Below, piece after piece: positions 9,278 to 62,542 of a DNA stretch of 64,000 nt. Source of the DNA: Eubacteriales bacterium. Lineage in GTDB: Bacteria; Bacillota; Clostridia; Oscillospirales; CAG-272. The notes under the pieces were generated by a model. It searched no databases, was not told where the DNA came from, and saw only the letters and a program-made list of their open reading frames with translations. The DNA lies in assembly GCA_045603085.1 (NCBI GenBank), contig JAZULL010000100.1, positions 1,808 through 65,807 of the forward strand, in the 5' to 3' direction. Numbering within the stretch: the stretch's first letter is position 1; every line of letters starts with the position of its first letter. Position numbers and translations under genes: made by a program.

Positions 9278-9300
9278 GTTTCACAATCATGCACGGCATG

Positions 9301-10158
9301 CTACATCGGCAAAACGCCGATGGGCAAAAGCGTTTGATAAAGATCAAGCAGGGCTTCCCTTTCTTGAACGTTGGCAATGCCCACGCGCACGGTGGGAAGG
9401 GCGGCAGGATTTGGCAAGCAGCTCGCGAGCGTCGCGGCGGCGCGCAAGGCGCGCGCATTGCGCACTGTCAGCACGATCTGTGTAAGACATCCGCTCTGTT
9501 GCAGATATGCAAGCAGGGCGCGCCACGCATCGACGTGGGTAAAATCCGATTCCACGTACAAAACCGAGCCGCGCTCGGCGCACAGCTTACCCAGCACGCG
9601 CAGGGTCTGCGCGCTCAGATGGTCATGCTCAACGGCTGTCAGCGTCTCCCTTTCGACTTCGCAAAGCCGTTTTGCCGTATATGGGTTGGGTCTGACAAAG
9701 CTTTCGATCTGCACCGTCACGCCAATTGCCTGCACCGGTGCATGCAACAGCCGCATCATCAGCTCGGTTGTGGGAGTGGCATAATAGGCTCGCCCCAGAT
9801 GCAACGTGCAAAGCTGCTCTCGCGCGGGGGGGATAAATGCGATCTCACAAACCGCCGGAAGGCTTGGGGCTTCCCCCTGCCCCGTCAGCGCGTATGCCAC
9901 GGCGTGCCAGAGACCGTCACAGCTCTCGGGGCAGATCGGGATCTCGCGCCCCAGCAGCTCCCCGATCAAGTCGGCATCGGATTTGAGGACGGGATGTCCC
10001 TTACACAGCGGCATGCAAGAGGCGTACGCATAAAATCTATCATAGTCCGAGCCCACGTCAAGCAAATTTTGCGGCACGCCGCAGGCGATCATGAGCGGCG
10101 TTCTGTCCGCGGTCTGCATCAGCAGCTGCCAGATATTTGTCGGCTTACGCATGCACAT
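9301..10158 (-). CDS. hypothetical protein (285 aa), no confident family assignment
   Basis: GGAAGGAGGG lies 6 nt upstream of ATG 10158 and the composition is protein-like. The overlapping plus-strand ORF 9289-10299 is R/H/Q/G-rich and looks like a shadow ORF. There is a faint resemblance to the central part of glucuronate-isomerase/amidohydrolase-type proteins, but the N-terminal metal-binding His motif is missing. Confidence 0.55.
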   Translation of the reverse strand: MCMRKPTNIWQLLMQTADRTPLMIACGVPQNLLDVGSDYDRFYAYASCMPLCKGHPVLKSDADLIGELLGREIPICPESCDGLWHAVAYALTGQGEAPSLPAVCEIAFIPPAREQLCTLHLGRAYYATPTTELMMRLLHAPVQAIGVTVQIESFVRPNPYTAKRLCEVERETLTAVEHDHLSAQTLRVLGKLCAERGSVLYVESDFTHVDAWRALLAYLQQSGCLTQIVLTVRNARALRAAATLASCLPNPAALPTVRVGIANVQEREALLDLYQTLLPIGVLPM

Positions 10159-10312
10159 CCCTCCTTCCTGACCCTTATTGTATCATACCGCGCCCGAATT
10201 TGCAAGTTTTGGGCGTTAAAATGTGAATTTTTCCGAAAATATTGCCCACATCTCTATACAAATTCCGAAAATTGTGATATAGTTATACTATCTATATAAT
10301 ATGGAGAAGTAT

Positions 10313-14930: not shown

Positions 14931-16382
14931 ATGAAAAAACTTTTAGCTCTTATTCTGTTCGCAACCCTTTGCATCGGTTGCCTGTGCGTCGGTATTTCGG
15001 CCGAGGACACCGAATACACCGCTGACACCTGGGCAAACGCCGAGCTCAAGGGCTTGTTCTTCCAGGACGGAGAGTACATCTACTCTGACCTTGCCGAAAA
15101 TTATGAAGCTTGGTGGTGGGAGGACTACGTTGAAGAAATCGACGAATATCCCATTGCCGCTTACGTCAACATGCGCGGCTTTGCAATGTCCGCTGACGGC
15201 AAGTTTGCCTACATGGGCACTCTGAACGGCGGTACCGGCGTTCGCGGCGTTGTCGTTCTCAACACCGCTACCGGTTGTATTACCGACCTCTACTACAAGT
15301 ATGACGGCGAAAACGGCCTTGCAGGCTCTGCTTTCTCTTATGCCAAGGGCATTGATGCAGACGATCGCGGCTACGTTTACACCGGATTTGCTTTCTCCAA
15401 CAACTACAACCTGCTCAACCTCGGCATTGCCAAGCAGCTGGAAAACGGCAAGCTGGAAGAGGTTTACTACGGTGCTGTTTATGACAACGGTCAGGTTCCC
15501 GGTGACTCCGCCGGCACCAAGGTTGGCGTGAATGGCGTTGAGGTTGCCAAGATCGGCGACAAGTACTACTGCTTCGTGATGTCCAACTACCAGCACGACG
15601 CTCTGTACTGCTTCGACGTAACCGATCCTGCCGCTCCCGTTCTCAACAAGGACTTCGGTATTGACGGCGTGATCGATTTCAACGATGCAGACTGCACCAT
15701 CGACATTGACGGCAAGCATCTGGACGAGGGTCAGTACCTCGAGGTAGATACTGACGGTACCGTTTGGCTGTGCGCCTCCCTTAAGGAAGGCGGCACCGGC
15801 ATTATCAAGATCGATGCTACCGGTATCACCTGCCTTGGCTACACCGAGCACGAAAGTGCTTACTGCATTTCTCACTACGGCAACTTCCTGCTTGTTGGTC
15901 TTAAGAACGGCACGGCCATCAACGTGCTGGACGATTCCACTATGGAGCAGGTAGCAACCATTGAGATTCCCGATGCAGACCGCGTTACCCGTATCCGCGT
16001 AATCAACGACACCCTGTACGTTTGCGGCGCAGGCGCTGACTCCATGCCCTACAACACCATCTATGCAGCTCCCCTGACCGCCGAGGCGCAGGCTGCTCTG
16101 GATGCACAGGTTGCAGTGCTCGACGCATTCCAGCAGACCGACGTGTCCCAAGAAGAGACCACCGAGGATCCCACCGAGGATACCACTCCCGAGGAAACCA
16201 CCGAGGCTCCTCCCATAGGCGAACAACCCACCGAGACTGACGACGTCACCACCGAGGCTCCCTCAGGTGAAGGAACAACCGAGGCTCCCAAGACCGAAAA
16301 GGCTTGCGGCGGCATCGTGGGTGCTGGCGTTCTGGCCATCATCGCGCTTGGTGCATGTGCCGTTACTAAGAGGAGAGATTAA
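14931..16382 (+). CDS. exported, C-terminally membrane-anchored surface protein (possible beta-propeller) with a Thr/Glu/Pro-rich stalk
   Basis: Signal peptide MKKLLALILFATLCIGCLCVGISA. Blade-like segments recur (YVYTGFAF, YYCFVMSN, VWLCASL, FLLVGLKNG, LYVCGAG). The stalk runs TTEDPTEDTTPEETTEAPP...TTEAPK, and the C-terminus has a TM helix plus KRRD. Confidence 0.7.
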   Translation: MKKLLALILFATLCIGCLCVGISAEDTEYTADTWANAELKGLFFQDGEYIYSDLAENYEAWWWEDYVEEIDEYPIAAYVNMRGFAMSADGKFAYMGTLNGGTGVRGVVVLNTATGCITDLYYKYDGENGLAGSAFSYAKGIDADDRGYVYTGFAFSNNYNLLNLGIAKQLENGKLEEVYYGAVYDNGQVPGDSAGTKVGVNGVEVAKIGDKYYCFVMSNYQHDALYCFDVTDPAAPVLNKDFGIDGVIDFNDADCTIDIDGKHLDEGQYLEVDTDGTVWLCASLKEGGTGIIKIDATGITCLGYTEHESAYCISHYGNFLLVGLKNGTAINVLDDSTMEQVATIEIPDADRVTRIRVINDTLYVCGAGADSMPYNTIYAAPLTAEAQAALDAQVAVLDAFQQTDVSQEETTEDPTEDTTPEETTEAPPIGEQPTETDDVTTEAPSGEGTTEAPKTEKACGGIVGAGVLAIIALGACAVTKRRD

Positions 16383-17259: not shown

Positions 17260-17972
17260 GCCAACCGATTTTAGTGTGCGAAAAGCTCACCAAGAGCTAT
17301 AAACGGGGCAAGCCTGTGCTCAACGAGCTGGAATTTGTTGTCCAGCCCGGCAAGATCGTGGGACTTCTCGGCCCCAACGGTTGCGGAAAATCCACCCTGC
17401 TCAAGCTGGTGGCGGGACTGTTGCAGCAGGACAGCGGCAGTATTCTGATCTGCGGGCAGGAGCGCAGCGAGAAAACCAATTCCCTGGTTTCTTTTCTGCC
17501 CGAGCGTCCCTATTTCTCGTCGTCTATGTCTGTCAATGCCATGATGGACTATTTCGGCGACTTTTACGAGGACTTTGACCGCGAGCTGGCGCTGACCATG
17601 CTCTCCGATCTTGGCATTGACCCGAGGGCGCGCATGCGCACGCTCTCCAAGGGCACCAAGGAAAAGGTACAGCTGATCCTTGTCATGGCGCGCCGCGCAA
17701 AGCTTTACCTGTTGGACGAGCCGATCGGCGGCGTTGACCCCGCGGCACGCGATTACATTCTCAAAACCATCATTGGTAACTATAACCCCGAGGCCTCGGC
17801 CATCATCACCACGCACCTGATTGCGGACGTGGAGAGCGTGCTGGACGATTTCGCCTTTGTGGACGGCGGAAAGATCGCCATGTGCGGCGACGCCGACGAG
17901 GCGCGTGAGCAACACGGCAAGACCTTGGATGAGCTTTTCAGGGAGGTGTTCAGATGTTCAAGAAATGCTTAA
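17256..17972 (+). CDS. ABC transporter ATP-binding protein
   Basis: Walker A GPNGCGKST, signature LSKGTKEKV and Walker B LYLLDEP. Confidence 0.92.
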   Translation: MSQPILVCEKLTKSYKRGKPVLNELEFVVQPGKIVGLLGPNGCGKSTLLKLVAGLLQQDSGSILICGQERSEKTNSLVSFLPERPYFSSSMSVNAMMDYFGDFYEDFDRELALTMLSDLGIDPRARMRTLSKGTKEKVQLILVMARRAKLYLLDEPIGGVDPAARDYILKTIIGNYNPEASAIITTHLIADVESVLDDFAFVDGGKIAMCGDADEAREQHGKTLDELFREVFRCSRNA

Positions 17973-18925
17973 AATACGATCTGCGTGCCTTTGGCAAGAT
18001 CTGGCTGATGGCGGCGGGCATTGCCCTGTTGCTTGGTGTGATCTGCTCGCTGGGCGTCGGTCTCTTCTCCTTCTCGCTCATCTATGAAGTCTACACGTCA
18101 TCGCTCGTTGATTCATATACCCCCGGCCTGCTGTTCTATACCCAAATGTTTTTAGGCGCGATATGCGCCATGCTGATGACCGCAGGCTCGCTGGTCATGG
18201 TGCTGGGCACAAGCATTGCCAACTACGTGCGCTATTACACCCACCTCTTTACCGACCAAGGATACCTCACCTTTACCCTGCCCGTCAAGCGCTCCACCAT
18301 TTTCTGGTCCAAGACGGTCAGCGCGTACCTCTATAATCTCGGTGCGATCACGGTCACCTCGATCATGGGCATTCTGTCGGCACTTGGCGTAGCATGCGGC
18401 ATTGTGGCGGGCGTGTTCTACGTTGGCATGATGCAGACCGGTATGACGCTGCTCGAGCTGCTGCAGACCTTTGATTGGGCAGATTTCGTGGAGATCTGGA
18501 ACGTTATCAAGAACTGGATCCTCAACGATCTCGGCTTGATCAACGTTTTCCGCATCTTGTTTATTTCGCTGTTGCTGGGTATCGTATATCTGGCGGCAGA
18601 TTTCGCTTCGATCATGACCGGTTATTTCTGCATCACCATCGGTGCGACGCTGTTCCGCAAGCTCAAGCTGCTGAGCGCTCTGGTCTGCTACTACGTGGTC
18701 AACAACGTGCTGGCTGTTCCCGCCGTGTATTTCGGCACGTACTATTTCATGTTTGCAGGCATGCTTGGCACGATTGCCATTCCCCAGCTGTTTGAAAACG
18801 TGCATATCGGCATGAGCGTGATCTATCTGATCCTTGCGATCATGGCGGTTATGTTTGTCACCATCGGTCTTGCCATGGCGTTCTTCTCAATCTGGCGCCT
18901 GGACAAGAAGCTCAATCTTGCGTAA
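17954..18925 (+). CDS. ABC transporter permease-like multi-pass membrane protein
   Basis: 323 aa with at least 6 hydrophobic helices. It overlaps the ATPase gene by 19 nt. No specific family was recognised. Confidence 0.7.
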   Translation: MFKKCLKYDLRAFGKIWLMAAGIALLLGVICSLGVGLFSFSLIYEVYTSSLVDSYTPGLLFYTQMFLGAICAMLMTAGSLVMVLGTSIANYVRYYTHLFTDQGYLTFTLPVKRSTIFWSKTVSAYLYNLGAITVTSIMGILSALGVACGIVAGVFYVGMMQTGMTLLELLQTFDWADFVEIWNVIKNWILNDLGLINVFRILFISLLLGIVYLAADFASIMTGYFCITIGATLFRKLKLLSALVCYYVVNNVLAVPAVYFGTYYFMFAGMLGTIAIPQLFENVHIGMSVIYLILAIMAVMFVTIGLAMAFFSIWRLDKKLNLA

Positions 18926-18938
18926 AGGAGGTGCAGAT

Positions 18939-19979
18939 ATGAAAAACTTCAAGAAATTATCCGCGCTTCTCATCGCTCTTTTCATGATCCTCTCGCTTTG
19001 TCTGCCCGTGCTTGCGGCAGATTACCCCACCGAGGAAATTGACGAAGCCGTTGTTTGGTCGTACGACGAGACCACGGGCGAGCTGACTCACGGCGAGGTG
19101 GTATACGAGGAATATTTTATCTCCTCGGGCTTCTGGGTGATCGGTGACCGATACAGATACAAGGAAACGGTCTACATGGAGCTCTACAATCTCCAGGATC
19201 ATACCGTATCGCAGTTCATCCCCGATGCCACAGTGCCCTCCGTACGCTCCGACATTGCGTTTGTCAGTTACTCCGCCTATTCCGGTGACGGTGACTTGCG
19301 CATATTCGTCACACCCGAGGGTAAGGCAGTCATGGATGCCTTTGAAAACGGACAATACACGTCTTATCAGTTTGCAGAGTATAAATCCCAGAGAGTGGAT
19401 CTCTCAAAAGATTTCATAACGGATATTGAAAACCGCGAGCCAAACCTGACACTGGACGTCAGAACGCTTCGCAATGCGACCAAATACAAGATCCTGGGCA
19501 TTGATGCAACCGGAAACTTCGCGCACATCATGGGCGCGGTTTATCAGACCGTGGACGGTCACGGCTACGTTTACGTAGACTACGATGCTCTTGAGAGCAA
19601 TATGCTGGACGCCGACGGTACGTTGTCCTACCGTGGGGGTGAGGTGCCCGCATACACATTGGATGCCGCAATGGTCGGAGACCTGATCGTGCAGGCACAA
19701 AACTGCAAGAATGTCAGCCCTCGGGTGTACTCGGCAAACGACTTTGAGGACGACGACCTCGACATAGATCAGACCCCTGCGCTGATTCTGTTTGCGCTGA
19801 TGCTCTCGCCGTTCTTATACGTCGCTCCCCTGCTGTTCTTAGTGCTGGGCATTGTGATGTGCTCGATCAAAAAGATTCCCGGCAGAAAGCGCTGGGGCGG
19901 CCTTGTCGCCGTTTCCTGCCTGTGGCTGGCCTGCTCGGTTGCCATTACGGTGCTGTGCATCGTGGCGATGGTGATTTAA
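18939..19979 (+). CDS. exported protein with two C-terminal TM helices, operon partner of the ABC transporter
   Basis: AAAGGAGG precedes ATG 18939. Signal peptide MKNFKKLSALLIALFMILSLCLPVLAADY. The C-terminal hydrophobic segments are ALILFALMLSPFLYVAPLLFLVLGIVM and LVAVSCLWLACSVAITVLCIVAMV. Confidence 0.7.
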   Translation: MKNFKKLSALLIALFMILSLCLPVLAADYPTEEIDEAVVWSYDETTGELTHGEVVYEEYFISSGFWVIGDRYRYKETVYMELYNLQDHTVSQFIPDATVPSVRSDIAFVSYSAYSGDGDLRIFVTPEGKAVMDAFENGQYTSYQFAEYKSQRVDLSKDFITDIENREPNLTLDVRTLRNATKYKILGIDATGNFAHIMGAVYQTVDGHGYVYVDYDALESNMLDADGTLSYRGGEVPAYTLDAAMVGDLIVQAQNCKNVSPRVYSANDFEDDDLDIDQTPALILFALMLSPFLYVAPLLFLVLGIVMCSIKKIPGRKRWGGLVAVSCLWLACSVAITVLCIVAMVI

Positions 19980-24395: not shown

Positions 24396-24896
24396 ATGAA
24401 TACAAACAGCAAGGGGCGTTCCCTTTTACCCATGCAGGCGCGCACGCGCGAGAAAACCCGCCCCGAAAGCGGCGGGCTTGTGCGCGGCGTTTTGTACGGT
24501 CTGGCATTTTGCGCGGTGACCGCCTTGGCATCTTTGCTTGCCGCGGCGGCTATTGCCTACGCCTCGCCCGACCCCGACGCGCTGACCCTGCCGCTGGGCT
24601 TTGGCGCAATGGTGCTGTCCTGTCTGGCGGGCGGGCTGGGCGTGGGACTTGGATGCCGCTCGGGCGTGCTGGTCAGTTCCCTGCTTTCGGGCTGTGCATT
24701 TGTGGGGCTGAGCCTTTTGCTGAGTATGTTTTTTGGCAGCGATCTGCGCCAATCCTTGACGCTGGGGCTTGGACTTGGCGCGTCCTTCGGCATTCGCGCG
24801 GGGCTGATTGCACTCTTTTGCGCGGCGGCCATCCTGACCGCACAGATCAAGGACAAATTCTCAAACCGTCCGCACGGCAATCGACGGCATCATTGA
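24396..24896 (+). CDS. Gly/Leu-rich polytopic membrane protein (YrzE/TIGR04086-like, tentative)
   Basis: 166 aa. GGAGG RBS and four very hydrophobic G/L/A-rich helices. Its position after yajC resembles B. subtilis yrzE. Confidence 0.5.
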   Translation: MNTNSKGRSLLPMQARTREKTRPESGGLVRGVLYGLAFCAVTALASLLAAAAIAYASPDPDALTLPLGFGAMVLSCLAGGLGVGLGCRSGVLVSSLLSGCAFVGLSLLLSMFFGSDLRQSLTLGLGLGASFGIRAGLIALFCAAAILTAQIKDKFSNRPHGNRRHH

Positions 24897-24910: not shown

Positions 24911-24934
24911 CGCACCTGCCTTGTGGCAGGTGCG
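24911..24934. terminator. bidirectional intrinsic terminator
   Basis: Perfect 10-bp stem CGCACCTGCC-TTGT-GGCAGGTGCG. The plus strand continues CTATTTTATT and the minus strand continues TTCTTTAT. Confidence 0.8.
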
Positions 24935-24939
24935 CTATT

Positions 24940-25983
24940 TTATTGATCGTAATATGCAGATTCAATATCATAATCCTCAACGCGGAGGTCGCCGGGATCA
25001 AACCACAGTTCAATACCGCCACCTTCGGGGTACCAACCCTCACCGCTTGTAAGCGATCCGGGAACCTTGGGAGTGCCCCAAGCACCCAAAACGTTGCCTT
25101 CCTGTTCCTGACGGTCAATGTAACAGACCAGCATGACAACCTTGAGGTTATCCGAATCAATTCCAAGGCCGTCCAAGCTATTGACTCCCAGCTTGGCAAG
25201 TGCATCACCCGCCAAGGTTTCCCACGGAATGGCAAGCTCGGCGATCCAGCCCGTGCCGTCTTGCTTGACTTTGGTCACGCCCTTCAGGCCGCCCTCCTTG
25301 GAGGATAATACATAATCGACAGTTGACGCGGCATCGTCTTTGATGCACTGCGCGGTCAGATTCACAGAGCCGTCCTCTTGCACTCCAAAGGAATAGAATA
25401 CAGCGCGCTCATACTCACCGCTTTGGCCGAAAACTCCGCCAAGATCCAGCTGAATCTGGAAGGCGTCACCGTTGTACGTATCGGTTGCGCTGTACGCGGG
25501 GGTTATGTCGCGCACGTCAAAGGCAATATACATATACTGAGTGTCACAGCTGACGTACATGGTAAAGCCGTCGCTCTCACCGATCTCACCCATCCAAGGG
25601 TCAAGATTGCTCGCATCAAAGTCTTGTTTCCAGCAATCGATCCATGACCACTCACTCAGGTCACCGTCCAAGACAAGCTGGGGGGCAGGTTCAATGCAAT
25701 CGGGCGGGTAGGTGTCGGTTTCACAGCCGACCGTGTCGTCAACGGGATAATCAACGGGCGGCTCGGTCGCGATCTCTGTCCAGGTTTCGATGTCGATCGC
25801 AACGTCGGTCTGCACGTCCGGATAGGGCTCGACGGGGGGAACCAAGATCACGTCGTCACCATGATCAACGTCCACACCGTAATTTCCAAAAATCTCCGCA
25901 ATCAACCCGTTGCCCATATCACAGCCCGCAAAGCAGGTTGCGCACAGCGCAAGAAATATTCCAAATGCAACTATTTTTTTCAT
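24940..25983 (-). CDS. lipoprotein paralog P1 with a CBM9/DOMON-like beta-sandwich region
   Basis: Signal peptide plus lipobox FAGC. Mature N-terminus CDMGNGLIAEIFG. DGDLSEWS...YMYIAFDVRD...GDAFQIQLDLGG resembles family-9-like carbohydrate-binding domains. GGAG RBS. Confidence 0.8.
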   Translation of the reverse strand: MKKIVAFGIFLALCATCFAGCDMGNGLIAEIFGNYGVDVDHGDDVILVPPVEPYPDVQTDVAIDIETWTEIATEPPVDYPVDDTVGCETDTYPPDCIEPAPQLVLDGDLSEWSWIDCWKQDFDASNLDPWMGEIGESDGFTMYVSCDTQYMYIAFDVRDITPAYSATDTYNGDAFQIQLDLGGVFGQSGEYERAVFYSFGVQEDGSVNLTAQCIKDDAASTVDYVLSSKEGGLKGVTKVKQDGTGWIAELAIPWETLAGDALAKLGVNSLDGLGIDSDNLKVVMLVCYIDRQEQEGNVLGAWGTPKVPGSLTSGEGWYPEGGGIELWFDPGDLRVEDYDIESAYYDQ

Positions 25984-26007
25984 GCAAAGCTCCTTTCTTT
26001 CCGGGGG

Positions 26008-26763
26008 TTATCCCTCGGTGGTCTCTTCAACAGCAGGTGCATCGGTCATATCCTCGACGGGCAGAGTTTCGGGCGGCATGGGATAGATATCGTCAATGTC
26101 ACCCTCCGTCAGATCCCCCTCAACCGCCTCCAGATTCACGGTCAGCGACTGCATCATGACCCAGCCGTCAAGCTGTACCTCTGTCGCATTGACGTACAGA
26201 TAGACCTCGTTATAGCCAACGCTCAGAGAATCCAACGGAATTTCAAGGAAAAAGCTGTGCAGGTAGTCGCCTTGGATCGGGTCATGGCCCCCGGGAAGAT
26301 CTGACCATGAAAAATCATACTTGCCGCACGCGCTGTCCGGAATGTTACATTCATAGCTGATGGCCTCGGAGTAGTAATACGCCGCATAGGCCTTGATGAC
26401 CAGCGTAGCACCGGGTGCATAAGGCACCGACAACGATCCGTTCCAATCAAGCAGATCCTCATAGCTCATCAGCTCTCTGACACTGCCGTCTGCGTACGCC
26501 ACGTAGGCAGTCAGATATTCCATCTCGGAAAGCTTGGGGATCACATATTCGATATCGGTCCATATTTCGGTCCACGTTTCGGGTATGGTTTCAACAGGCA
26601 TGGGTGCGGGCTCGATCGGATCGACCAACACGTCTCCACCGGGCACGTAGTTCCCTACGTTGTCTCCAAAGATCTCTGCGATCAGGCCATTGCCCATATC
26701 ACAGCTGCATAGAAAGGTCAGACACAAAGCTGTCAGAATACATACTGCAATAATTCTTTTCAT
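26008..26763 (-). CDS. lipoprotein paralog P2
   Basis: Lipobox LCSC. Mature N-terminus CDMGNGLIAEIFG. C-terminal module ...IPLDSLSVGYNEVYLYVNATEVQLDGWVM. AGGAG RBS. Confidence 0.8.
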   Translation of the reverse strand: MKRIIAVCILTALCLTFLCSCDMGNGLIAEIFGDNVGNYVPGGDVLVDPIEPAPMPVETIPETWTEIWTDIEYVIPKLSEMEYLTAYVAYADGSVRELMSYEDLLDWNGSLSVPYAPGATLVIKAYAAYYYSEAISYECNIPDSACGKYDFSWSDLPGGHDPIQGDYLHSFFLEIPLDSLSVGYNEVYLYVNATEVQLDGWVMMQSLTVNLEAVEGDLTEGDIDDIYPMPPETLPVEDMTDAPAVEETTEG

Positions 26764-26789
26764 ATAAGTGCTCCTTTTCTGATCGTATT

Positions 26790-27527
26790 TTATCTGATTC
26801 CCTCGGCCTTGATAACCTCCAGCTCGCAGAAGCGGTAGGTAAATCCTGTTTGCTCATTGTGCGCCCAGAGATAGATGTGCTGTGCACCAAGCTCCAGCTC
26901 TTCGGCAGGAATCGAAACGTAGAACGCGGCCGCATACGTACCGCCCACCTGCTCTACCCGTTCTGTAATCCCGGGTGTTGCCTCGGCGGAGAAAGACTCA
27001 CTGTAAACCGGCTCGGAATCCTTATCAAAGGAATAGCCGAACTGCATGTCGTCCACGCCTACCATCGCGATCCATCCGCCGTAGGAGATGGAAAGATCAC
27101 CCTCCAGCACAACGCCGGCCCGATCGGGCTCGTCGCGGGTATCATCATAATAATAATTTTCGGTCATTCCTTCGCCACCGTCTAAAAATTGTACGTCAAT
27201 ACAGTTGATCACGACGTATACAGCCATAGGCTCTTGTACGGGTGGCAGGGTGCAACAATCGTCTTCCCACGTTGTCTCATCACCCTCGGTCCAAATTTCG
27301 GTTTCGGTCGCGATTTCGGTCTCGGGATAGTAGTACCCGCCATGGTGATCGGGATCGGTGCACTCGCAGATAAAACGGTCGGTATCTGTGGTGGGCATCT
27401 CGATCACGGCATCAACTTCCTTGTATTGCTCTCCGAAAAGCTCTGCGATCAGTCCTCCGCTCAAATCACAGGAGGCCAGCATGACACACAGCAGTACGAC
27501 TGCAAGAAAACCGGCTAATTTCTTCAT
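26790..27527 (-). CDS. lipoprotein paralog P3
   Basis: AGGAGG precedes ATG 27527. Lipobox LASC. Mature N-terminus CDLSGGLIAELFG. Contains the CECTDPDHHGGY motif. Confidence 0.8.
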   Translation of the reverse strand: MKKLAGFLAVVLLCVMLASCDLSGGLIAELFGEQYKEVDAVIEMPTTDTDRFICECTDPDHHGGYYYPETEIATETEIWTEGDETTWEDDCCTLPPVQEPMAVYVVINCIDVQFLDGGEGMTENYYYDDTRDEPDRAGVVLEGDLSISYGGWIAMVGVDDMQFGYSFDKDSEPVYSESFSAEATPGITERVEQVGGTYAAAFYVSIPAEELELGAQHIYLWAHNEQTGFTYRFCELEVIKAEGIR

Positions 27528-27540
27528 AAGCTCCTCCTTT

Positions 27541-28128
27541 TTAAGATTCTTGGGTTGTACTCGGATCGGCACTCATCTCGATCTGAATACGGTCAAACAT
27601 GACCCAGCCGTCCAACGCGTGGCCTACGGCGTCCGCATGCAGAGCGATCTCGTTCTCGCCGATCATCAGCACGTCGGTCGGCACGGTCAGGTCAAAGCGG
27701 ACGATAAAGTCCGCCTCCACGTCGTCGGACACCTCTCCGTCATCCTTGTTGATTCTGCGGGAGGTGACGTTATCATAGTCAACCTGTCCGTCGGGGGTTC
27801 TGTAGTAAAAATTCACGCTGTCCGATTCATTGAAAAACGCGTATCCGACAATGTGAAGTGAGCTGACGGCATCCGTACAGGTAAGGTACAAGTCCCATGG
27901 CTGTGTCGGCTCCTCTGTGACAAGCATTTCGGTCTGTCCGTCCTTGTAGGTCACCTCGACGTACACGTAGGTGGACGCCACCAGCTTGGGCACCGGCAGA
28001 TTGGGATCTGCCGTCAGGTGCACCGTGGAATCCTGCTCCTCACCCGTTTGGGGCGCAAGTGCTTGGCATCCGGTCAACAAAAGTGCGCAGATAACGGACA
28101 AAAGCAACATATAGCGCGGTTTTTTCAT
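27541..28128 (-). CDS. lipoprotein paralog P4 (lacks the GLIAEIFG motif)
   Basis: AAGGAG precedes ATG 28128. Lipobox LTGC. C-terminal module ...VPTDVLMIGENEIALHADAVGHALDGWVM is shared with P2. Confidence 0.75.
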   Translation of the reverse strand: MKKPRYMLLLSVICALLLTGCQALAPQTGEEQDSTVHLTADPNLPVPKLVASTYVYVEVTYKDGQTEMLVTEEPTQPWDLYLTCTDAVSSLHIVGYAFFNESDSVNFYYRTPDGQVDYDNVTSRRINKDDGEVSDDVEADFIVRFDLTVPTDVLMIGENEIALHADAVGHALDGWVMFDRIQIEMSADPSTTQES

Positions 28129-28162
28129 GGCGTTTATCTCCTTAGCCATGGGATTACTTTGT

Positions 28163-29104
28163 TTAATTGGGGGAAACGGCGATCATCTCATAGGGGTACA
28201 GGATCAACACCAAGGACGGATCAATACTGTACGACTTGATCTCGTTTCCGTTTTTATCCATATCTACGTAAGTAATGTCGATCACGGCGTAGAGCTTTTC
28301 TTTTGACAAGTCAAGCTCGGCAAGCGTAGCGCCCACGTTTCGCTCCAGATCCGCGATCAACAGATCCCATTTCAATCCAAACTCTGCTGTCCAGCCGATC
28401 TGCACGATCTTCGCGCCCTCGATCTGGGTCTTCACGCGCACACCGCCAATGACCGCTTTTTGATTTTCCGAGCCGTCACGGGATGTATAGAATTTTTCCC
28501 CGTCGTCGTGCATATCGCCCGGCGCACGTACCGCCACGTCAAAGCAACCGGTTTCGCATTTCCCAAACGTGTACGACACCGGCTTCAAGGCCTCCGAGCC
28601 GGATTGACACAGCTCTCCCAGATCCAGCGTGATCACAAAATGATCTCCGTCATACGATCCTATTTCAGAATTTGCAACGGTACGGTCAGAAACGTCAAAT
28701 CCAAAATAAAGGTATTCACTATCCGTTACCGTATACACGGTAAAGCCATCCTCATCGGTCAGCTCTCCTTCGGTTGCCAGCAAATCATCCTTTGCAAACG
28801 TGCGAGAAAATGCATTCTCCACGTCATTCCAATCCGTCAGATCCTCTCCATTCGGCGTAAGCTGTTGGATATGGACATCGGGCAATGCAGGGGTGGTCAC
28901 GGGATAGCCTTCATGGTGATAGGGGTCGGTGCATTCGCACTTGGTGTTCCAACCACCGTCGGTCGTGTAAATCTCGCCGACCTGGGGATCGATCTCCAGG
29001 CTTTGGCCAAACATCTCACCAATCAGTCCTCTTGAAAAGTCACAGGAGGTCAAAACGGTCAGGCAAAGTACGGTGGATGCGAAAATACACAATGCTCTTT
29101 TCAT
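28163..29104 (-). CDS. lipoprotein paralog P5 with a CBM9/DOMON-like region
   Basis: AGGAGG RBS. Lipobox LTSC. Mature N-terminus CDFSRGLIGEMFG. Contains the CECTDPYHHEGY motif, and LTDW...YLYFGFDVSD...GDHFVITLDLGE parallels P1. Confidence 0.8.
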   Translation of the reverse strand: MKRALCIFASTVLCLTVLTSCDFSRGLIGEMFGQSLEIDPQVGEIYTTDGGWNTKCECTDPYHHEGYPVTTPALPDVHIQQLTPNGEDLTDWNDVENAFSRTFAKDDLLATEGELTDEDGFTVYTVTDSEYLYFGFDVSDRTVANSEIGSYDGDHFVITLDLGELCQSGSEALKPVSYTFGKCETGCFDVAVRAPGDMHDDGEKFYTSRDGSENQKAVIGGVRVKTQIEGAKIVQIGWTAEFGLKWDLLIADLERNVGATLAELDLSKEKLYAVIDITYVDMDKNGNEIKSYSIDPSLVLILYPYEMIAVSPN

Positions 29105-29137: not shown

Positions 29138-29851
29138 TTAGATCTTAGCCTTTTTGATTCTTCTCTTCATCTTGGTCAGATCGCGCAGCATCTTGAGTGT
29201 GTCGCGCACTAAGTTGACCGAGGATTCGCGGTGGTTGATGATCTTGACGGGAATTTCATGAATGGTCATGCCGTACTTGACCGCCCACAGAATGGCTTCA
29301 AAGTCAAATGCGAAGCGATCCACCTCGCATCTGGGGAAGATCTTCTTGACGGCATCCTGCGTGAACGCCTTGCATCCGCACTGGGAATCCGACAGCTTAA
29401 AGCCACCCGCAATACACAGCACCTTGATATAGGTCTTGCTGGCCAGCTTACGGATAAAGGTGTAGCCCTCGTAGCCGTCCTTGGAGAGATTGCGCGAGCC
29501 GATCACCATATCGGCCTCGGGGTGCTCCAGGAATGCATCTCTGACGCGCGCGATAACGTCTGTGCCGTAAGCCAGATCGGCATCGGTGAACATGACGTAA
29601 TCGCCCTTGGCGGCCAGCATGGCGGTGCGGACAGCATAGCCCTTGCCGCGGTTCTGCTCATAGCCAACCACACGAACCGAGGGCAGGTGCAGCTGCTCTA
29701 CCAGCTTATCACAGCCGTCCTTGGAGCCGTCGTTGGCAAAAATGATCTCATAATCCTCAAAATTGGCCTGCATGTATGCGGACAGCTGTCTTGCGGTGTC
29801 CTCAATGATGCTCGACTCATTATACATGGGAATGCAAAGTGAAAATTTCAT
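29138..29851 (-). CDS. family-2 glycosyltransferase (polyprenyl-phosphate sugar synthase-like, soluble form)
   Basis: 237 aa. SLCIPMYNE, FANDGSKDG and FTDADL (DxD) motifs. Confidence 0.8.
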   Translation of the reverse strand: MKFSLCIPMYNESSIIEDTARQLSAYMQANFEDYEIIFANDGSKDGCDKLVEQLHLPSVRVVGYEQNRGKGYAVRTAMLAAKGDYVMFTDADLAYGTDVIARVRDAFLEHPEADMVIGSRNLSKDGYEGYTFIRKLASKTYIKVLCIAGGFKLSDSQCGCKAFTQDAVKKIFPRCEVDRFAFDFEAILWAVKYGMTIHEIPVKIINHRESSVNLVRDTLKMLRDLTKMKRRIKKAKI

Positions 29852-32197: not shown

Positions 32198-33499
32198 TCA
32201 GAGTGAATCGGGTCTGCGCTTGTCAAAGCCCTTGGGGCTTCCCGCGCGCATGATGTCACCCTCGCGTATTTCAAAGGGTACGCGGCACCAGAAAATCATG
32301 GAAGGGTGCGGTGCCGAGGGCACGGGCGTACCGTCGGCGGCGTAAAGCTCGCAAACCTCAAAGCCCTTGCCGATCTTGCCGGGAGAGATGACCTCTGCCC
32401 TCTCGCCCACGCTGACCTTGTTTCTCTGCACAAAGCGGTACAGCCTGCCCTGCTCTGTCTGCATGGCTACGCCCGCCGCTTCAAGCGCACTTGCTTCTTC
32501 TTGATTATATTCCGTTGCGGTTGCGAAATATGCTTTCTCACGCATATATCCGCATTCCCCCAGCAGCTGGGGATTGTTCATGGGATCGTCTAAGTAAAAT
32601 CCCGTGCCGTAGGTGCGGTGCGAGACGCTCTCCAGCTCCGAGAGCCAATCGGGATCGAACTCGTAATGCTCGGGGTCTGCCGCGTAAGCATCCATGGCCA
32701 TGCGGTAAACGTTGGTGACCACGGCGGTATAATACGCGCTCTTCATTCTTCCCTCGATCTTGAAGGAATCAATGCCGCTCTGCATCAGGAGCGGTATGCA
32801 ATCGATGGTGCACATATCCTTGGAGGACATGATAAACGTGCCGTACTCGTTCTGCTCGATCGGAATGGGCATTTCGGGACGCTTCTCCTCCACCAGCACG
32901 TAGTTCCATCTGCAGGGCTGTGAGCAGGTGCCGCGATTGCCGTCGCGCCCGTTGAGCGCGTTGGCCAGCAGACATCTGCCGCTGTACGACACGCACATCG
33001 AGCCGTGCACAAATGCCTCCAGCTCTACGTCGTCTGGCAGAGCCTCTCTGATGGCCCTGATCTCCGAAAAGCTCAGCTCGCGCGCCAGCACCAGTCTCTT
33101 GGCGCCCAACGCCGCCCATGCGCAAGCCGCGGCGGGGCTGATGATGCTCGCCTGGGTGGAGACGTGGATCTCCATATCGGGCAGCATTTCCTTGACGGTT
33201 GCCAGCACACCCATATCGGCCACGATCATGGCGTCGATGCCATAGTCCCTGATCTCGGAAAAGAACTTGCGAAGCAAGGGGTATTCTGCCGTGCGCGGCA
33301 TTGTGTTGACGGTCAGATACAGCTTTTTGCCGCGAGCGTGGGTGTACTCCACAGCCTCTTTGAGTTCCTCGTTTGTAAAGTTATCTGCCGCAGAACGCAT
33401 ACCAAACATCTGTCCTGCGCAGTATACGGCGTCCGCGCCGTACAGCAGCGCCGCCTTGAGTTTTTCAAAATTCCCCGCCGGGGATAACAGTTCAGGCAT
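32198..33499 (-). CDS. U32-family peptidase-like protein
   Basis: MPELLSPAGN start and the signature EAFVHGSMCVSYSGRCLL. GGAGA precedes ATG 33499. Confidence 0.85.
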   Translation of the reverse strand: MPELLSPAGNFEKLKAALLYGADAVYCAGQMFGMRSAADNFTNEELKEAVEYTHARGKKLYLTVNTMPRTAEYPLLRKFFSEIRDYGIDAMIVADMGVLATVKEMLPDMEIHVSTQASIISPAAACAWAALGAKRLVLARELSFSEIRAIREALPDDVELEAFVHGSMCVSYSGRCLLANALNGRDGNRGTCSQPCRWNYVLVEEKRPEMPIPIEQNEYGTFIMSSKDMCTIDCIPLLMQSGIDSFKIEGRMKSAYYTAVVTNVYRMAMDAYAADPEHYEFDPDWLSELESVSHRTYGTGFYLDDPMNNPQLLGECGYMREKAYFATATEYNQEEASALEAAGVAMQTEQGRLYRFVQRNKVSVGERAEVISPGKIGKGFEVCELYAADGTPVPSAPHPSMIFWCRVPFEIREGDIMRAGSPKGFDKRRPDSL

Positions 33500-33575
33500 A
33501 TTCATCTCCATATACGGGAATTTTGCATCTATCTATATAGACGCCAAATACATGCAAAAAGTTCCCTTGATTTGA

Positions 33576-34173: not shown

Positions 34174-34968
34174 TTACTCGGGGAGATATTCGGCAAAGGG
34201 CAGTCCGGGCCACTCAAAGATCTCCTCAACCTTCTCGTAGTGATAATAGAACTCGCTCTTGGGGTCATCGCTCGGAGTCATCAGATACCGGCCGGGGGCA
34301 AAGCCCTCTTGCTCGGTCATGATCCAAACGTAGGTGTCCTCCAACCCGCTGATATAGTCCAGCTCGTAAATATCGGAATAATAGGCATAGCCGATGATCT
34401 CGCTGACGGGAGCCTGATCGTCATACACCACGCCGTAATTGAACACGAAATCGCAGTTTTTCCAGTTGTAGTAGATGCGGTAGAATTCGCCATCCTCGGG
34501 AATGGTCAGCCTCAGACAAATATCAATGTCCTCGGAAATGCTGATCGAGCCGCCCCAGCCTGCCAGATAATCCACAGCGTCCTGCACGCAGGAGAATTCC
34601 TCTCCGTCATCCGTACGGCAAATGGTATAGCCAAAGTCATATCTGCCGTCGTAGCACTTAGTCATGCCGTCATACGACGTACCAACCTCGATCAGATTGA
34701 GATAGGGGTTATTGGGATCGTCATCCGCAAAATCGTCGCGGCCAAGCTGATCATTTCCCTGCTCGCCGGAGTCGGTGGGGGCTTCGGTGGGAGTCTCGGT
34801 CTCGGTTTCGGTGGGGGTTTCGGTCGGGGTCTCGGTCGGGGCTTCGGTAGGCGCCTCGGTGGTGGGTTCGGGGGTGGTCTGTTCGGGGGTCTTGCCCTGA
34901 TCGCAGGCAACAAGTGCCAGCATCAGCACTGCGCAAAGCAGAAGGGATACAATGCCGGTCTTTCTCAT
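34174..34968 (-). CDS. hypothetical lipoprotein with a (TE[AT]P)n linker
   Basis: Lipobox LVAC and linker TTEAPTEAPTETPTETPTETETETPTEAP. The Cys/Tyr/Asp-rich globular part was not recognised. Confidence 0.75.
   Translation of the reverse strand: MRKTGIVSLLLCAVLMLALVACDQGKTPEQTTPEPTTEAPTEAPTETPTETPTETETETPTEAPTDSGEQGNDQLGRDDFADDDPNNPYLNLIEVGTSYDGMTKCYDGRYDFGYTICRTDDGEEFSCVQDAVDYLAGWGGSISISEDIDICLRLTIPEDGEFYRIYYNWKNCDFVFNYGVVYDDQAPVSEIIGYAYYSDIYELDYISGLEDTYVWIMTEQEGFAPGRYLMTPSDDPKSEFYYHYEKVEEIFEWPGLPFAEYLPE
34774..34869. repeat. imperfect 12-nt tandem repeat (about 8 units) inside the lipoprotein gene
   Basis: Units run GGTGGGGGCTTC / GGTGGGAGTCTC / GGTCTCGGTTTC / GGTGGGGGTTTC / GGTCGGGGTCTC / GGTCGGGGCTTC and onward. 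They encode TEAP/TETP on the minus strand. Confidence 0.8.
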
Positions 34969-61180: not shown

Positions 61181-62542
61181 ATGAAAAAGCAATTCTTGCG
61201 AATCGTTACTCTTTTAGTATGCAGTATCATGCTGGTTTCCTGCAATCCCCGGCAATCCGATCTTCCTATGGCAGAGCAGATCTCCCAAAAAGCGGATCAG
61301 GCAATGTCACGCGTCAAGAGCTACCGCACGGACATGGAGATGCACTACTCCTTTTTTGTCGATGACACAAAAATGAGGGGCACGTTAAATGGCATCCTGA
61401 TTGAGGATCAGGGTAAGGGCCGGGGAGATTACTATTACTATTCCGAAACGTCTCACAGTCTGACGGTTGGCTCTATTCACAATCCAACCAAAACAAGGAT
61501 TCTGAATGCATATTATGATGGAACAGCATTCTCGTCAGTCACGCAGGGCAAAACCATTATCAAGCTCTGCTCTCCCATGTCCGCATCCGGCTACCGAAAA
61601 TATCAGCTGCAGCACAGCGCGGTCGCAGACGTGGATTATACCAATTGCAAAAACGTCTCGTACTCCACCTCCGAGGACGGATACACGCTGACTTATTCGG
61701 GATACGACCCGCAGGATCTTTTGGAGCTGCTTTCCAACTCGGGGCTTGACGAGCAGACCCTTGGCGCGGCTCCCGATGACATGAACGTTGTTTTGGAGAT
61801 CGACGATCAATATCTGCCTATCAGTATTTCCATGGAAATGGTATTCGTAGCCTCATCCCCCATAAAAGAGCCTCCTACGTTTGAAATCTACATGGAATTC
61901 TCTGAATTCAACCAAGCACAGCGCATTACCAATACCATTGAGCTTGAGGATTACACGAAAATTCCCGATCTGCGCTTGCTGGACGGGCTGGAGAAATTGA
62001 TTTATGACAGAATCAAGTCGCGCGAAAGCTCCTTTACCTATGTGACCAATGAGGAGTTGAACACCAAAACGACCGTCCGCAAAAGCAACATGCAAGGCGG
62101 CGGTACCTGCTACAACACAAAAGACGGATTTGAATGTGACATACTGATCTCCTCCGAGTCGGTCAACCGCATCGACGTTGAATACAGCAACGGAGAGCTT
62201 AATCTGTTTAACGGCAGAAGATACGATGATCAAAAGATGGACGACGAGCAAGCGCAGGAATACGTATATTCCCTGCTCGCGCTGGGATATGATCCCGCCA
62301 GCGTCGTCAATATTGAAAAAACCAAGCACGGTTATCTGGTCACCATGCTCTCTACAAAGAGCAGCGCACCTGCGCAATCGCTCTCTCAGTCCGGTATCCA
62401 ATACGACTCGGGAACATACACCATAGAGTTTGTCATCAAGTGGGGAAAGCTCTCCTCTGTGACAAGTAATTTCTTCGCAAACTGCTCCTTAAGCGGCGTC
62501 TCTTTAACGTATGAGAGCGTCACATCGGTGGCATTTGACTAA
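61181..62542 (+). CDS. hypothetical lipoprotein (453 aa), A/T-richer than its neighbours
   Basis: Lipobox MLVSC. No catalytic motif was recognised. Sampled 60-nt lines give 22/60 and 23/60 G+C, against 40/60 in the adjacent pfk. Confidence 0.75.
   Translation: MKKQFLRIVTLLVCSIMLVSCNPRQSDLPMAEQISQKADQAMSRVKSYRTDMEMHYSFFVDDTKMRGTLNGILIEDQGKGRGDYYYYSETSHSLTVGSIHNPTKTRILNAYYDGTAFSSVTQGKTIIKLCSPMSASGYRKYQLQHSAVADVDYTNCKNVSYSTSEDGYTLTYSGYDPQDLLELLSNSGLDEQTLGAAPDDMNVVLEIDDQYLPISISMEMVFVASSPIKEPPTFEIYMEFSEFNQAQRITNTIELEDYTKIPDLRLLDGLEKLIYDRIKSRESSFTYVTNEELNTKTTVRKSNMQGGGTCYNTKDGFECDILISSESVNRIDVEYSNGELNLFNGRRYDDQKMDDEQAQEYVYSLLALGYDPASVVNIEKTKHGYLVTMLSTKSSAPAQSLSQSGIQYDSGTYTIEFVIKWGKLSSVTSNFFANCSLSGVSLTYESVTSVAFD

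Follow-up and report, generated by a model that had tools for sequence, protein, structure and literature searches.

The 64-kb stretch of DNA analyzed here (the window) contains a tandem array of five lipoprotein genes, P1 to P5, at 24940-29104, all lying on the minus strand. In four of the five encoded proteins (P1, P2, P3 and P5) the lipobox cysteine is followed directly by a conserved peptide, giving the motif C-D-x-[GS]-x-G-L-I-[AG]-E-[ILM]-F-G. Comparison of the coding sequences indicates that this motif is kept by selection at the protein level, as the initial annotation had argued. Both the observation and the argument from selection hold up, and the motif extends beyond this locus and this species and onto a third, unrelated fold. 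All the copies seen come from a single uncultured lineage and from two arrays.

The array is laid out as first described, which we confirmed by checking the open reading frames (ORFs) and the sequence. The five co-directional ORFs are separated by gaps of 13-34 nt (24, 26, 13 and 34 nt), and an AGGAG-type Shine-Dalgarno site lies ahead of every one of them. Each protein begins with MKK or MKR and continues through 14-17 hydrophobic residues into a lipobox (FAGC, LCSC, LASC, LTGC and LTSC for P1 to P5), as is required of a type II signal peptide. The Phe at -3 in P1 is a tolerated variant of the lipobox consensus [LVI][ASTVI][GAS]C (PMC5817068). Lipidation of the array proteins is thus predicted; neither lgt nor lsp lies within the window. 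The mechanical ORF calls were too long for two of the genes (P3, 26790-27572; P4, 27541-28149). P3 most likely starts at the ATG at 27527, which lies behind an AGGAGG, rather than at the GTG at 27572, and P4 most likely starts at the ATG at 28128, with AAGGAG placed 8 nt upstream.

P1 (24940-25983; 347 aa) comprises an N-terminal module, a disordered acidic linker and a body with a predicted CBM9 fold. Its motif, CDMGNGLIAEIFG, occupies residues 21-33 and is encoded at 25885-25923. The identical peptide CDMGNGLIAEIFG is encoded at 26665-26703 in P2 (26008-26763; 251 aa), where the module and linker precede a predicted Ig-like beta-sandwich body (residues 77-212) and an acidic tail. In P3 (26790-27527; 245 aa) the motif is CDLSGGLIAELFG (27432-27470), and the module is joined to a body distantly homologous to those of P2 and P4. 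In P5 (28163-29104; 313 aa) it is CDFSRGLIGEMFG (29006-29044), ahead of a P1-type, CBM9-like body. These four peptides are exactly those originally reported. P4 (27541-28128; 195 aa) is a lipoprotein with a P2-type body that continues after its lipobox LTGC as CQALAPQ and lacks the motif. A six-frame scan finds the motif at these four sites only in the window, and a repeat finder gives the 42-nt stretch that encodes it as the top direct-repeat family, with 64-83% DNA identity between copies. The other predicted lipoproteins of the window, at 34174-34968 and 61181-62542, have no motif, as for P4. Residues 1-35, which include the motif, have no match in Pfam, NCBIfam or the PDB sequences, and NCBIfam has nothing for any of P1 to P5. 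The motif is therefore unannotated, as had been claimed, and does not correspond to an N-terminal domain annotated in these collections.

Selection was analyzed in 38 unique N-termini from the window and related loci using Nei-Gojobori counts, numbering the lipobox Cys as 0. Amino acid entropy is low from -20 to +12 and is 2.2-3.0 bits from +13 onwards, so that there is a sharp boundary at +12/+13. C0, G+5 and L+6 are invariant, with D+1 present in 97% and E+9 in 95% of the sequences, and yet G+5 uses all four of its codons and L+6 uses three. The consensus across the set is C-D-[LMF]-[GS]-[NG]-G-L-V-A-E-L-F-G; the second Gly, at +13, is not conserved. The proportions of synonymous (pS) and non-synonymous (pN) sites that differ are 0.60 and 0.17 in the motif, 0.57 and 0.28 in the signal peptide, and 0.72 and 0.60 in the linker, corresponding to dN/dS values of 0.16, 0.33 and 0.52 respectively. 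Between P1 and P2 the motif differs at 6.0 of 8.0 synonymous sites and at 0 of 31 non-synonymous sites. The initial annotation had listed five of these six codon differences, missing a second att/atc. Since the amino acids are fixed while the codons vary, the comparison points to protein-level selection and not to recent conversion, and on this the earlier argument is borne out by the pS and pN values and by the P1/P2 counts. A DNA-level recombination site or recent gene conversion can be rejected, as synonymous change is close to saturated and the window contains no long stretches of identical DNA.

The five proteins had been described as paralogs. They are not one family, since there are two unrelated families of body, but they have in common a portable N-terminal module. 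In an all-against-all BLASTP comparison P1 and P5 align over their full length (28% identity over 318 aa, E 1e-27) and P2 and P4 align over the body (E 2e-16), while P1 and P2, and likewise P3 and P5, have only the N-terminal 65-75 residues in common. When the N-termini were stripped and the bodies alone were compared as profiles, P2/P4 proved homologous to P3 (hhalign probability 97.8%, E 8e-13), and the P1/P5 body was unrelated both to the P2/P4 bodies and to that of P3. P1 matches the Pfam family CBM9_1 (PF06452) with 26.1 bits against a cutoff of 23.4 (E 9e-6). Residues 105-340 of P1 are modeled by AlphaFold2 (AF2) with a predicted local distance difference test (pLDDT) score of >90, and the top Foldseek match of the model is the CBM9 structure 1i82 (E 2.8e-7, TM 0.66), with 7nwo and 7nwn giving TM 0.60. 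The model thus identifies the P1 body as a beta-sandwich of the CBM9 fold. P5 gives no direct match to the CBM9 profile and is assigned through its homology to P1. Classical CBM9 modules are appended to xylanases, whereas here the domain forms a stand-alone protein that is predicted to be lipid anchored. The P2 body, residues 77-212, is also modeled as a beta-sandwich with pLDDT >90, and its matches in the PDB are weak and limited to generic Ig-like beta-sandwiches.

Signal peptides, spacers and bodies occur in shuffled combinations, and recombination between array members is on this sequence evidence frequent, with breakpoints flanking the motif. In P0001, a 93% identical ortholog of P1, the P1 body is headed by a signal peptide of the P2 type, and in P0003 and P0067 a P2-type spacer follows a signal peptide of the P1 type. 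Across species one spacer, for example IRNEYDYGYVEPP, is found behind differing signal peptides and ahead of differing body types, and a distinctive signal peptide, MKRIALFFLIACLCCSFVAC, precedes different spacers. In orthologs from sister strains, signal peptides have been swapped in both directions, P2-type onto a P1 body and P1-type onto a P2 body, with the junctions located at the motif.

Homologs of P1 retain both lipobox and motif down to about 40% identity; in more distant homologs of the P1 body the motif is missing and the signal peptide is of the ordinary Sec type. The array is found at the same chromosomal site in at least 10 assemblies of related ruminant-gut Clostridia (metagenome-assembled genomes, MAGs). 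It is bordered in every related contig by UppP, RNase M5, an RlmA-like methyltransferase and a family-2 glycosyltransferase (GT2) on one side, and by a small membrane protein, YajC and a DUF1385 protein on the other. Between these borders are 2-7 lipoprotein genes of variable body type. The first array is thus a hypervariable island whose place within a housekeeping region is fixed. P4-type bodies do have the motif in other species, as in two related loci (L019 6178-7035 and L020 1055-1846).

We searched 185,579 species-representative genomes with a degenerate DNA pattern of the motif. Lipoprotein N-termini matching it came only from uncultured "Eubacteriales/Clostridia bacterium" MAGs, usually with several per contig, and where a source was stated it was the gut of yak, cattle or sheep. 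In a metagenome collection the pattern found such lipoprotein genes in one assembly project only. About 20 Chloroflexota contigs also matched, and these were rejected as a chance look-alike: the matching peptide is an internal CDDVEGLVAELLG in a conserved enzyme that has no signal peptide, in the context HRAHGHFLAY-CDDVEGLVAELLG-RRTGVVGG or HRAHGHFLAY...RRTGVVGGVGGTQHLH (loci L003, L004, L009, L017, L056, L057 and others). The remaining matches were in random frames. An exhaustive search of 1.84 billion representatives with a 44-residue N-terminal profile hidden Markov model (HMM) gave only 47 clusters at E ≤ 1e-3, and these all seem to belong to a single uncultured lineage. This count probably underestimates the reach of the core motif, because the 44-residue profile includes the signal peptide. 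A word-indexed homolog search with the same profile gave short fragments only and was uninformative.

Weak HMM matches led to a second group of proteins, which we call family D. These are lipoproteins of about 500 residues belonging to the extracellular solute-binding protein (SBP) family, with the variant motif CDMEFGGLVGELLG. Their N-termini read ...FAAC-DMEFGGLVGELLG, or alternatively CNLAEFEFGGLVGELLG, CDFGSLGGGGLVGELLG or CDTQSGLVGEVLG. With the SBP_bac_8/1 profile P0119 scores 37.1 bits against a cutoff of 27, and P0120 falls just under it at 26.2; there are precomputed PF13416/PF01547 matches for several members. The core G-L-V-G-E-L-[LF] is kept among members that are 27-69% identical, with synonymous codon variation. 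Family D has a different signal peptide, and the spacing from Cys to core varies between 3 and 9 residues; retention of the core under these circumstances argues that the core itself is the conserved unit. Distant homologs of family D have plain lipoprotein N-termini with no motif. The motif is thus shared by many related species and also appears, on an unrelated protein family, at another locus; it is not a peculiarity of the locus and species in which it was first noticed.

The SBP-like genes are themselves arrayed in tandem, with 4-5 paralogs occupying a fixed site upstream of the SpoIIIA operon that is bordered by RsfS and by a 1,260-residue CotH/LTD/Fn3 lipoprotein. There is no ABC permease beside this array, and no glycosyltransferase flanks it. 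Both arrays are found in the same MAGs, namely JAZNCE (L042/L050 and L054), JAZOVZ (L002/L019 and L055) and JAZUSJ (L027 and L052). Only some of the SBP-like paralogs have the motif, with two such genes lacking it in each of L053 and L054. Since some paralogs in the same arrays, P4 of the window among them, work without the motif, it is not required for the function of the bodies. The second island also encodes one to three paralogous secreted proteins of ~525 aa that have a C-terminal membrane anchor and no Pfam domain (L053 3438-15540; L054 295-15503; L055 1902-15507). The order of the island is the ~525-aa proteins, the 4-5 SBP-like lipoproteins and the ~1,260-aa CotH/LTD/Fn3_assoc/RCC1 lipoprotein.

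In the AF2 models of P1 and P2 the signal peptide is helical, and a further short helix is predicted with low confidence (pLDDT about 45-55) at residues 27-32 (LIAEIF). This helix is not packed on the body, and is followed by 40-70 residues that are disordered and acidic. The pattern of conservation is hydrophobic at L+6, V+7, L+10 and F/L+11, small at A/G+8 and G+12, and acidic at E+9, which would fit an amphipathic helix of two turns. The linkers at 25768-25810, 26548-26582 and 27279-27325 (minus strand) contain short repeats coding for E-T-[EW]-[IT]-W-T/E-like units, and a linker in the same style (EETWIEETWIE) is found in the SBP-like family; an acidic stalk with Trp residues may be a separate feature of the module. 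P3 and P5 also share a linker segment, C-E-C-T-D-P-x-H-H-x-G-Y, at 27334-27368 and 28905-28939 (minus strand, 83% DNA identity), that occurs in P0097 as well. This Cys/His-rich knuckle might bind a metal.

We tentatively favor an explanation in which a portable N-terminal anchor-and-stalk module has the motif as its conserved head, and the motif acts as a membrane-proximal contact or docking element. In this module a type II signal peptide would be followed by the lipobox Cys, then by an amphipathic helix of two turns, bracketed by Gly and with the core G-L-[VI]-[AG]-E-[LI]-[FL]-G, and then by a long disordered linker that is acidic and rich in Pro, Thr and Trp. Duplication and recombination would have joined this module to at least three extracytoplasmic binding folds that are unrelated to one another (CBM9-like, Ig-like beta-sandwich and solute-binding protein), in genes arranged as tandem arrays at two fixed chromosomal sites in one uncultured, spore-forming lineage of gut Clostridia. 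Lgt and Lsp would lipidate and expose the Cys. The short helix would then remain at the outer face of the membrane, its L6/V7/L10/F11 side in contact with the bilayer interface or else with a membrane partner common to these proteins, with the small residues at +8 and +12 permitting close packing, and the acidic linker would lead the binding domain outwards across the cell wall. On this view the motif would be no part of the recognition by Lgt or Lsp, and would instead provide a secondary contact for a specific subset of substrate-capturing lipoproteins. Purifying selection acts on the core in all three of these unrelated folds; the core invariably lies close to the Cys and ahead of a long acidic linker, and only a subset of the lipoproteins of one lineage has it. 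We favor a membrane-proximal role because a helix tethered by lipid is confined to the membrane surface, and could act only there.

A number of observations weigh against this explanation. No partner, pathway or co-occurring gene was identified, nor was any partner or machinery found next to either array, and the undescribed sorting or docking system that was initially suggested is therefore only a candidate. The helix is predicted with low confidence, and the distribution is very narrow, at about 47 clusters in one lineage. Both arrays include paralogs that are free of the motif (P4 in the window, and the two SBP-like genes in each of L053 and L054). Finally, the signal peptide, with dN/dS of 0.33, is nearly as conserved as the motif, and the conservation may come partly from shared descent and recombination of the whole 5' module. 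A more specific proposal, which we hold to be rather doubtful, is that the helix is a dedicated recognition tag by which a monoderm Firmicute recruits chosen lipid-anchored glycan- or solute-binding proteins (CBM9-like, Ig-like and SBP-like) to a common membrane partner or envelope pathway. If this were true, it would provide a Gram-positive counterpart, at the level of concept, of the lipoprotein export signal (LES)/Sus arrangement of Bacteroidota.

It is also conceivable, if unlikely, that the motif has no function of its own, and is simply the best-preserved part of a duplicated 5' module that is kept similar by recombination among tandem paralogs, as happens in other multigene families of variable lipoproteins. 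The almost equal conservation of the signal peptide would be expected on this basis, as would the chimeric N-termini of sister strains with breakpoints flanking the motif (P0001, P0003 and P0067), the joining of one spacer to various signal peptides and bodies across species, and the narrow lineage distribution. However, the synonymous sites of the motif are near saturation while its amino acids are fixed (6 of 8.0 against 0 of 31 between P1 and P2, with dN/dS of 0.16 compared with 0.52 for the linker), and long tracts of identical DNA are absent from the window. Amino acid invariance combined with codon turnover is not accounted for by recombination alone, and the core is retained in family D despite a different signal peptide and spacer.

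A role as a sorting or export tag, by which a dedicated and undescribed pathway analogous to that of the LES would send a subset of glycan-binding lipoproteins to a particular location in the envelope, seems less likely again. The motif does lie directly after the presumably lipidated Cys, with Asp at +2, and it is conserved across unrelated bodies in a subset of lipoproteins that all have predicted binding domains. Yet its character is hydrophobic and amphipathic, unlike the charge-based K-(D/E)2 of the LES (PMC5080379), and its spacing from the Cys varies in family D. The SpoIIIA operon in related contigs and AddAB in the window are typical of Firmicutes, and no outer-membrane genes were seen in the 64-kb window, so that there is no known second membrane to serve as a target. 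Nor was candidate machinery found next to either array. We give still less credence to the idea that the motif is a processing site, at which a protease cuts within or beside the motif to shed the binding proteins or to mature the N-terminus. Shedding of lipoproteins occurs in Firmicutes, and the Gly-rich flanks (G-N-G, F-G-G and the terminal G) resemble flexible sites accessible to proteases. However, the motif does not match known cleavage signals, and neither array has a linked peptidase gene; the U32 peptidase encoded at 32198-33511 is a conserved housekeeping neighbor.

Three known signals were considered and rejected. A class III, type IV prepilin signal has the form G/[FMLIV]xxxE with about 20 residues of hydrophobic sequence behind it. 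In the motif there is a Glu at +4 from the invariant Gly, but what follows is the acidic disordered linker and not a hydrophobic stretch. A double-glycine leader does not fit the spacing, and the second Gly at +13 is not conserved. An N-glycosylation sequon is excluded in that no Ser or Thr stands behind the Asn at +2.

The closest functional analog of the motif, compared by analogy, is the LES of Bacteroidota (Lauber et al. 2016), a charge motif of 3-5 residues, K-(D/E)2 or Q-A-(D/E)2, whose position is critical; it acts in diderms, where lipoproteins are flipped across the outer membrane (PMC5080379). The resemblance lies in a short conserved peptide after the Cys that is present on a subset of lipoproteins, mainly glycan-capturing surface proteins, and that is transferable between unrelated bodies. 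The motif differs in being an amphipathic, Gly-bracketed core of 8 residues with variable spacing, in a lineage of spore-forming Clostridia with no outer membrane evident. The acidic cluster after the Cys that defines the LES is not present in the motif, where only the D and E+9 are acidic.

A second parallel is found in multigene families of variable lipoproteins with conserved 5' ends, such as Vpma, Vsp, Vlp and Vsa of Mycoplasma and Vlp and Vsp of Borrelia. Like the arrays described here, the Vpma/Vsp/Vlp/Vsa families (Vpma is mentioned in PMC9501237) are tandem lipoprotein arrays with a conserved signal peptide and first mature residues ahead of divergent bodies, in which recombination reshuffles modules and the number of genes at a fixed locus varies between strains or species. 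In contrast to the Vpma/Vsa type, all the genes of the window array are co-directional and have their own ribosome-binding sites, with no single expression site; the bodies are folded binding domains of unrelated folds, and the motif is also found at a second locus on SBP-like proteins. There is no recombinase between UppP and yajC, nor are there significant inverted repeats or inverted gene orientation. Long in-frame tandem repeats are also absent, with only 2-5 copies of units of 6-18 nt in the acidic linkers.

Lol avoidance in Enterobacteria is a rule of one or two residues that is meaningful only where Lol sorts lipoproteins to the outer membrane. The motif shares its Asp at +2 (97% of motif copies), but such a signal leaves the conservation from +5 to +12 unexplained. 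To our knowledge, monoderms are generally thought to need only the lipobox for the placement of lipoproteins. A review of surface display in monoderms likewise gives the lipobox as the only lipoprotein determinant (PMC5817068). Spirochete surface lipoproteins such as OspA have a disordered N-terminal tether after the lipid anchor that contains localization information (PMC2987989). The Borrelia tethers have no conserved sequence motif, whereas here a discrete conserved helix is predicted ahead of the disordered linker.

The genes that flank the array form its fixed borders in all related genomes. Upstream, 33 nt from P5, lies the GT2 (29138-29851, minus strand), for which NCBIfam gives only generic matches of the polyprenyl-phosphate-sugar-synthase-like type. 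Its protein is 94-97% identical across related MAG species, compared with 70-80% for its neighbors, and its synonymous divergence is still about 0.47 with pN of about 0.03, which therefore reflects extreme purifying selection and not recent transfer. We therefore rejected the GT2 as a recently co-transferred or motif-specific partner, given also that the second array has no flanking glycosyltransferase. Downstream, beside yajC, is a small Gly-rich multi-pass membrane protein (24396-24896, plus strand), convergent with P1, that is syntenic in all related contigs at 48-63% identity and has no Pfam or NCBIfam match. Between this ORF and P1 is a GC-rich hairpin terminator (24911-24934), also found as an inverted repeat, which is the sole terminator-like site from UppP to the end of the array; there is none inside the array, nor between the GT2 and P5. 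No Rfam elements were found in the window. Elsewhere in the window, several sizeable ORFs on the plus strand (9289-10299, 14931-16382 and 17954-19979) have no Pfam match at E ≤ 1e-5. One of them encodes a protein of 483 aa that begins with a signal peptide, and two others lie downstream of an ABC ATPase.

Should the motif prove to be no more than a family heirloom, what is left is a lineage-specific family of lipoprotein genes. If it is functional, a selected peptide after the Cys of some lipoproteins would add a further layer of organization at the Gram-positive membrane surface, for docking, retention or release, an idea that is strengthened by the sharing of the peptide among unrelated binding folds. 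A functional peptide of this kind would also provide a portable tag for displaying proteins on such cells. The arrays themselves look like a rapidly diversifying repertoire for substrate capture in an uncultured lineage of the ruminant gut.

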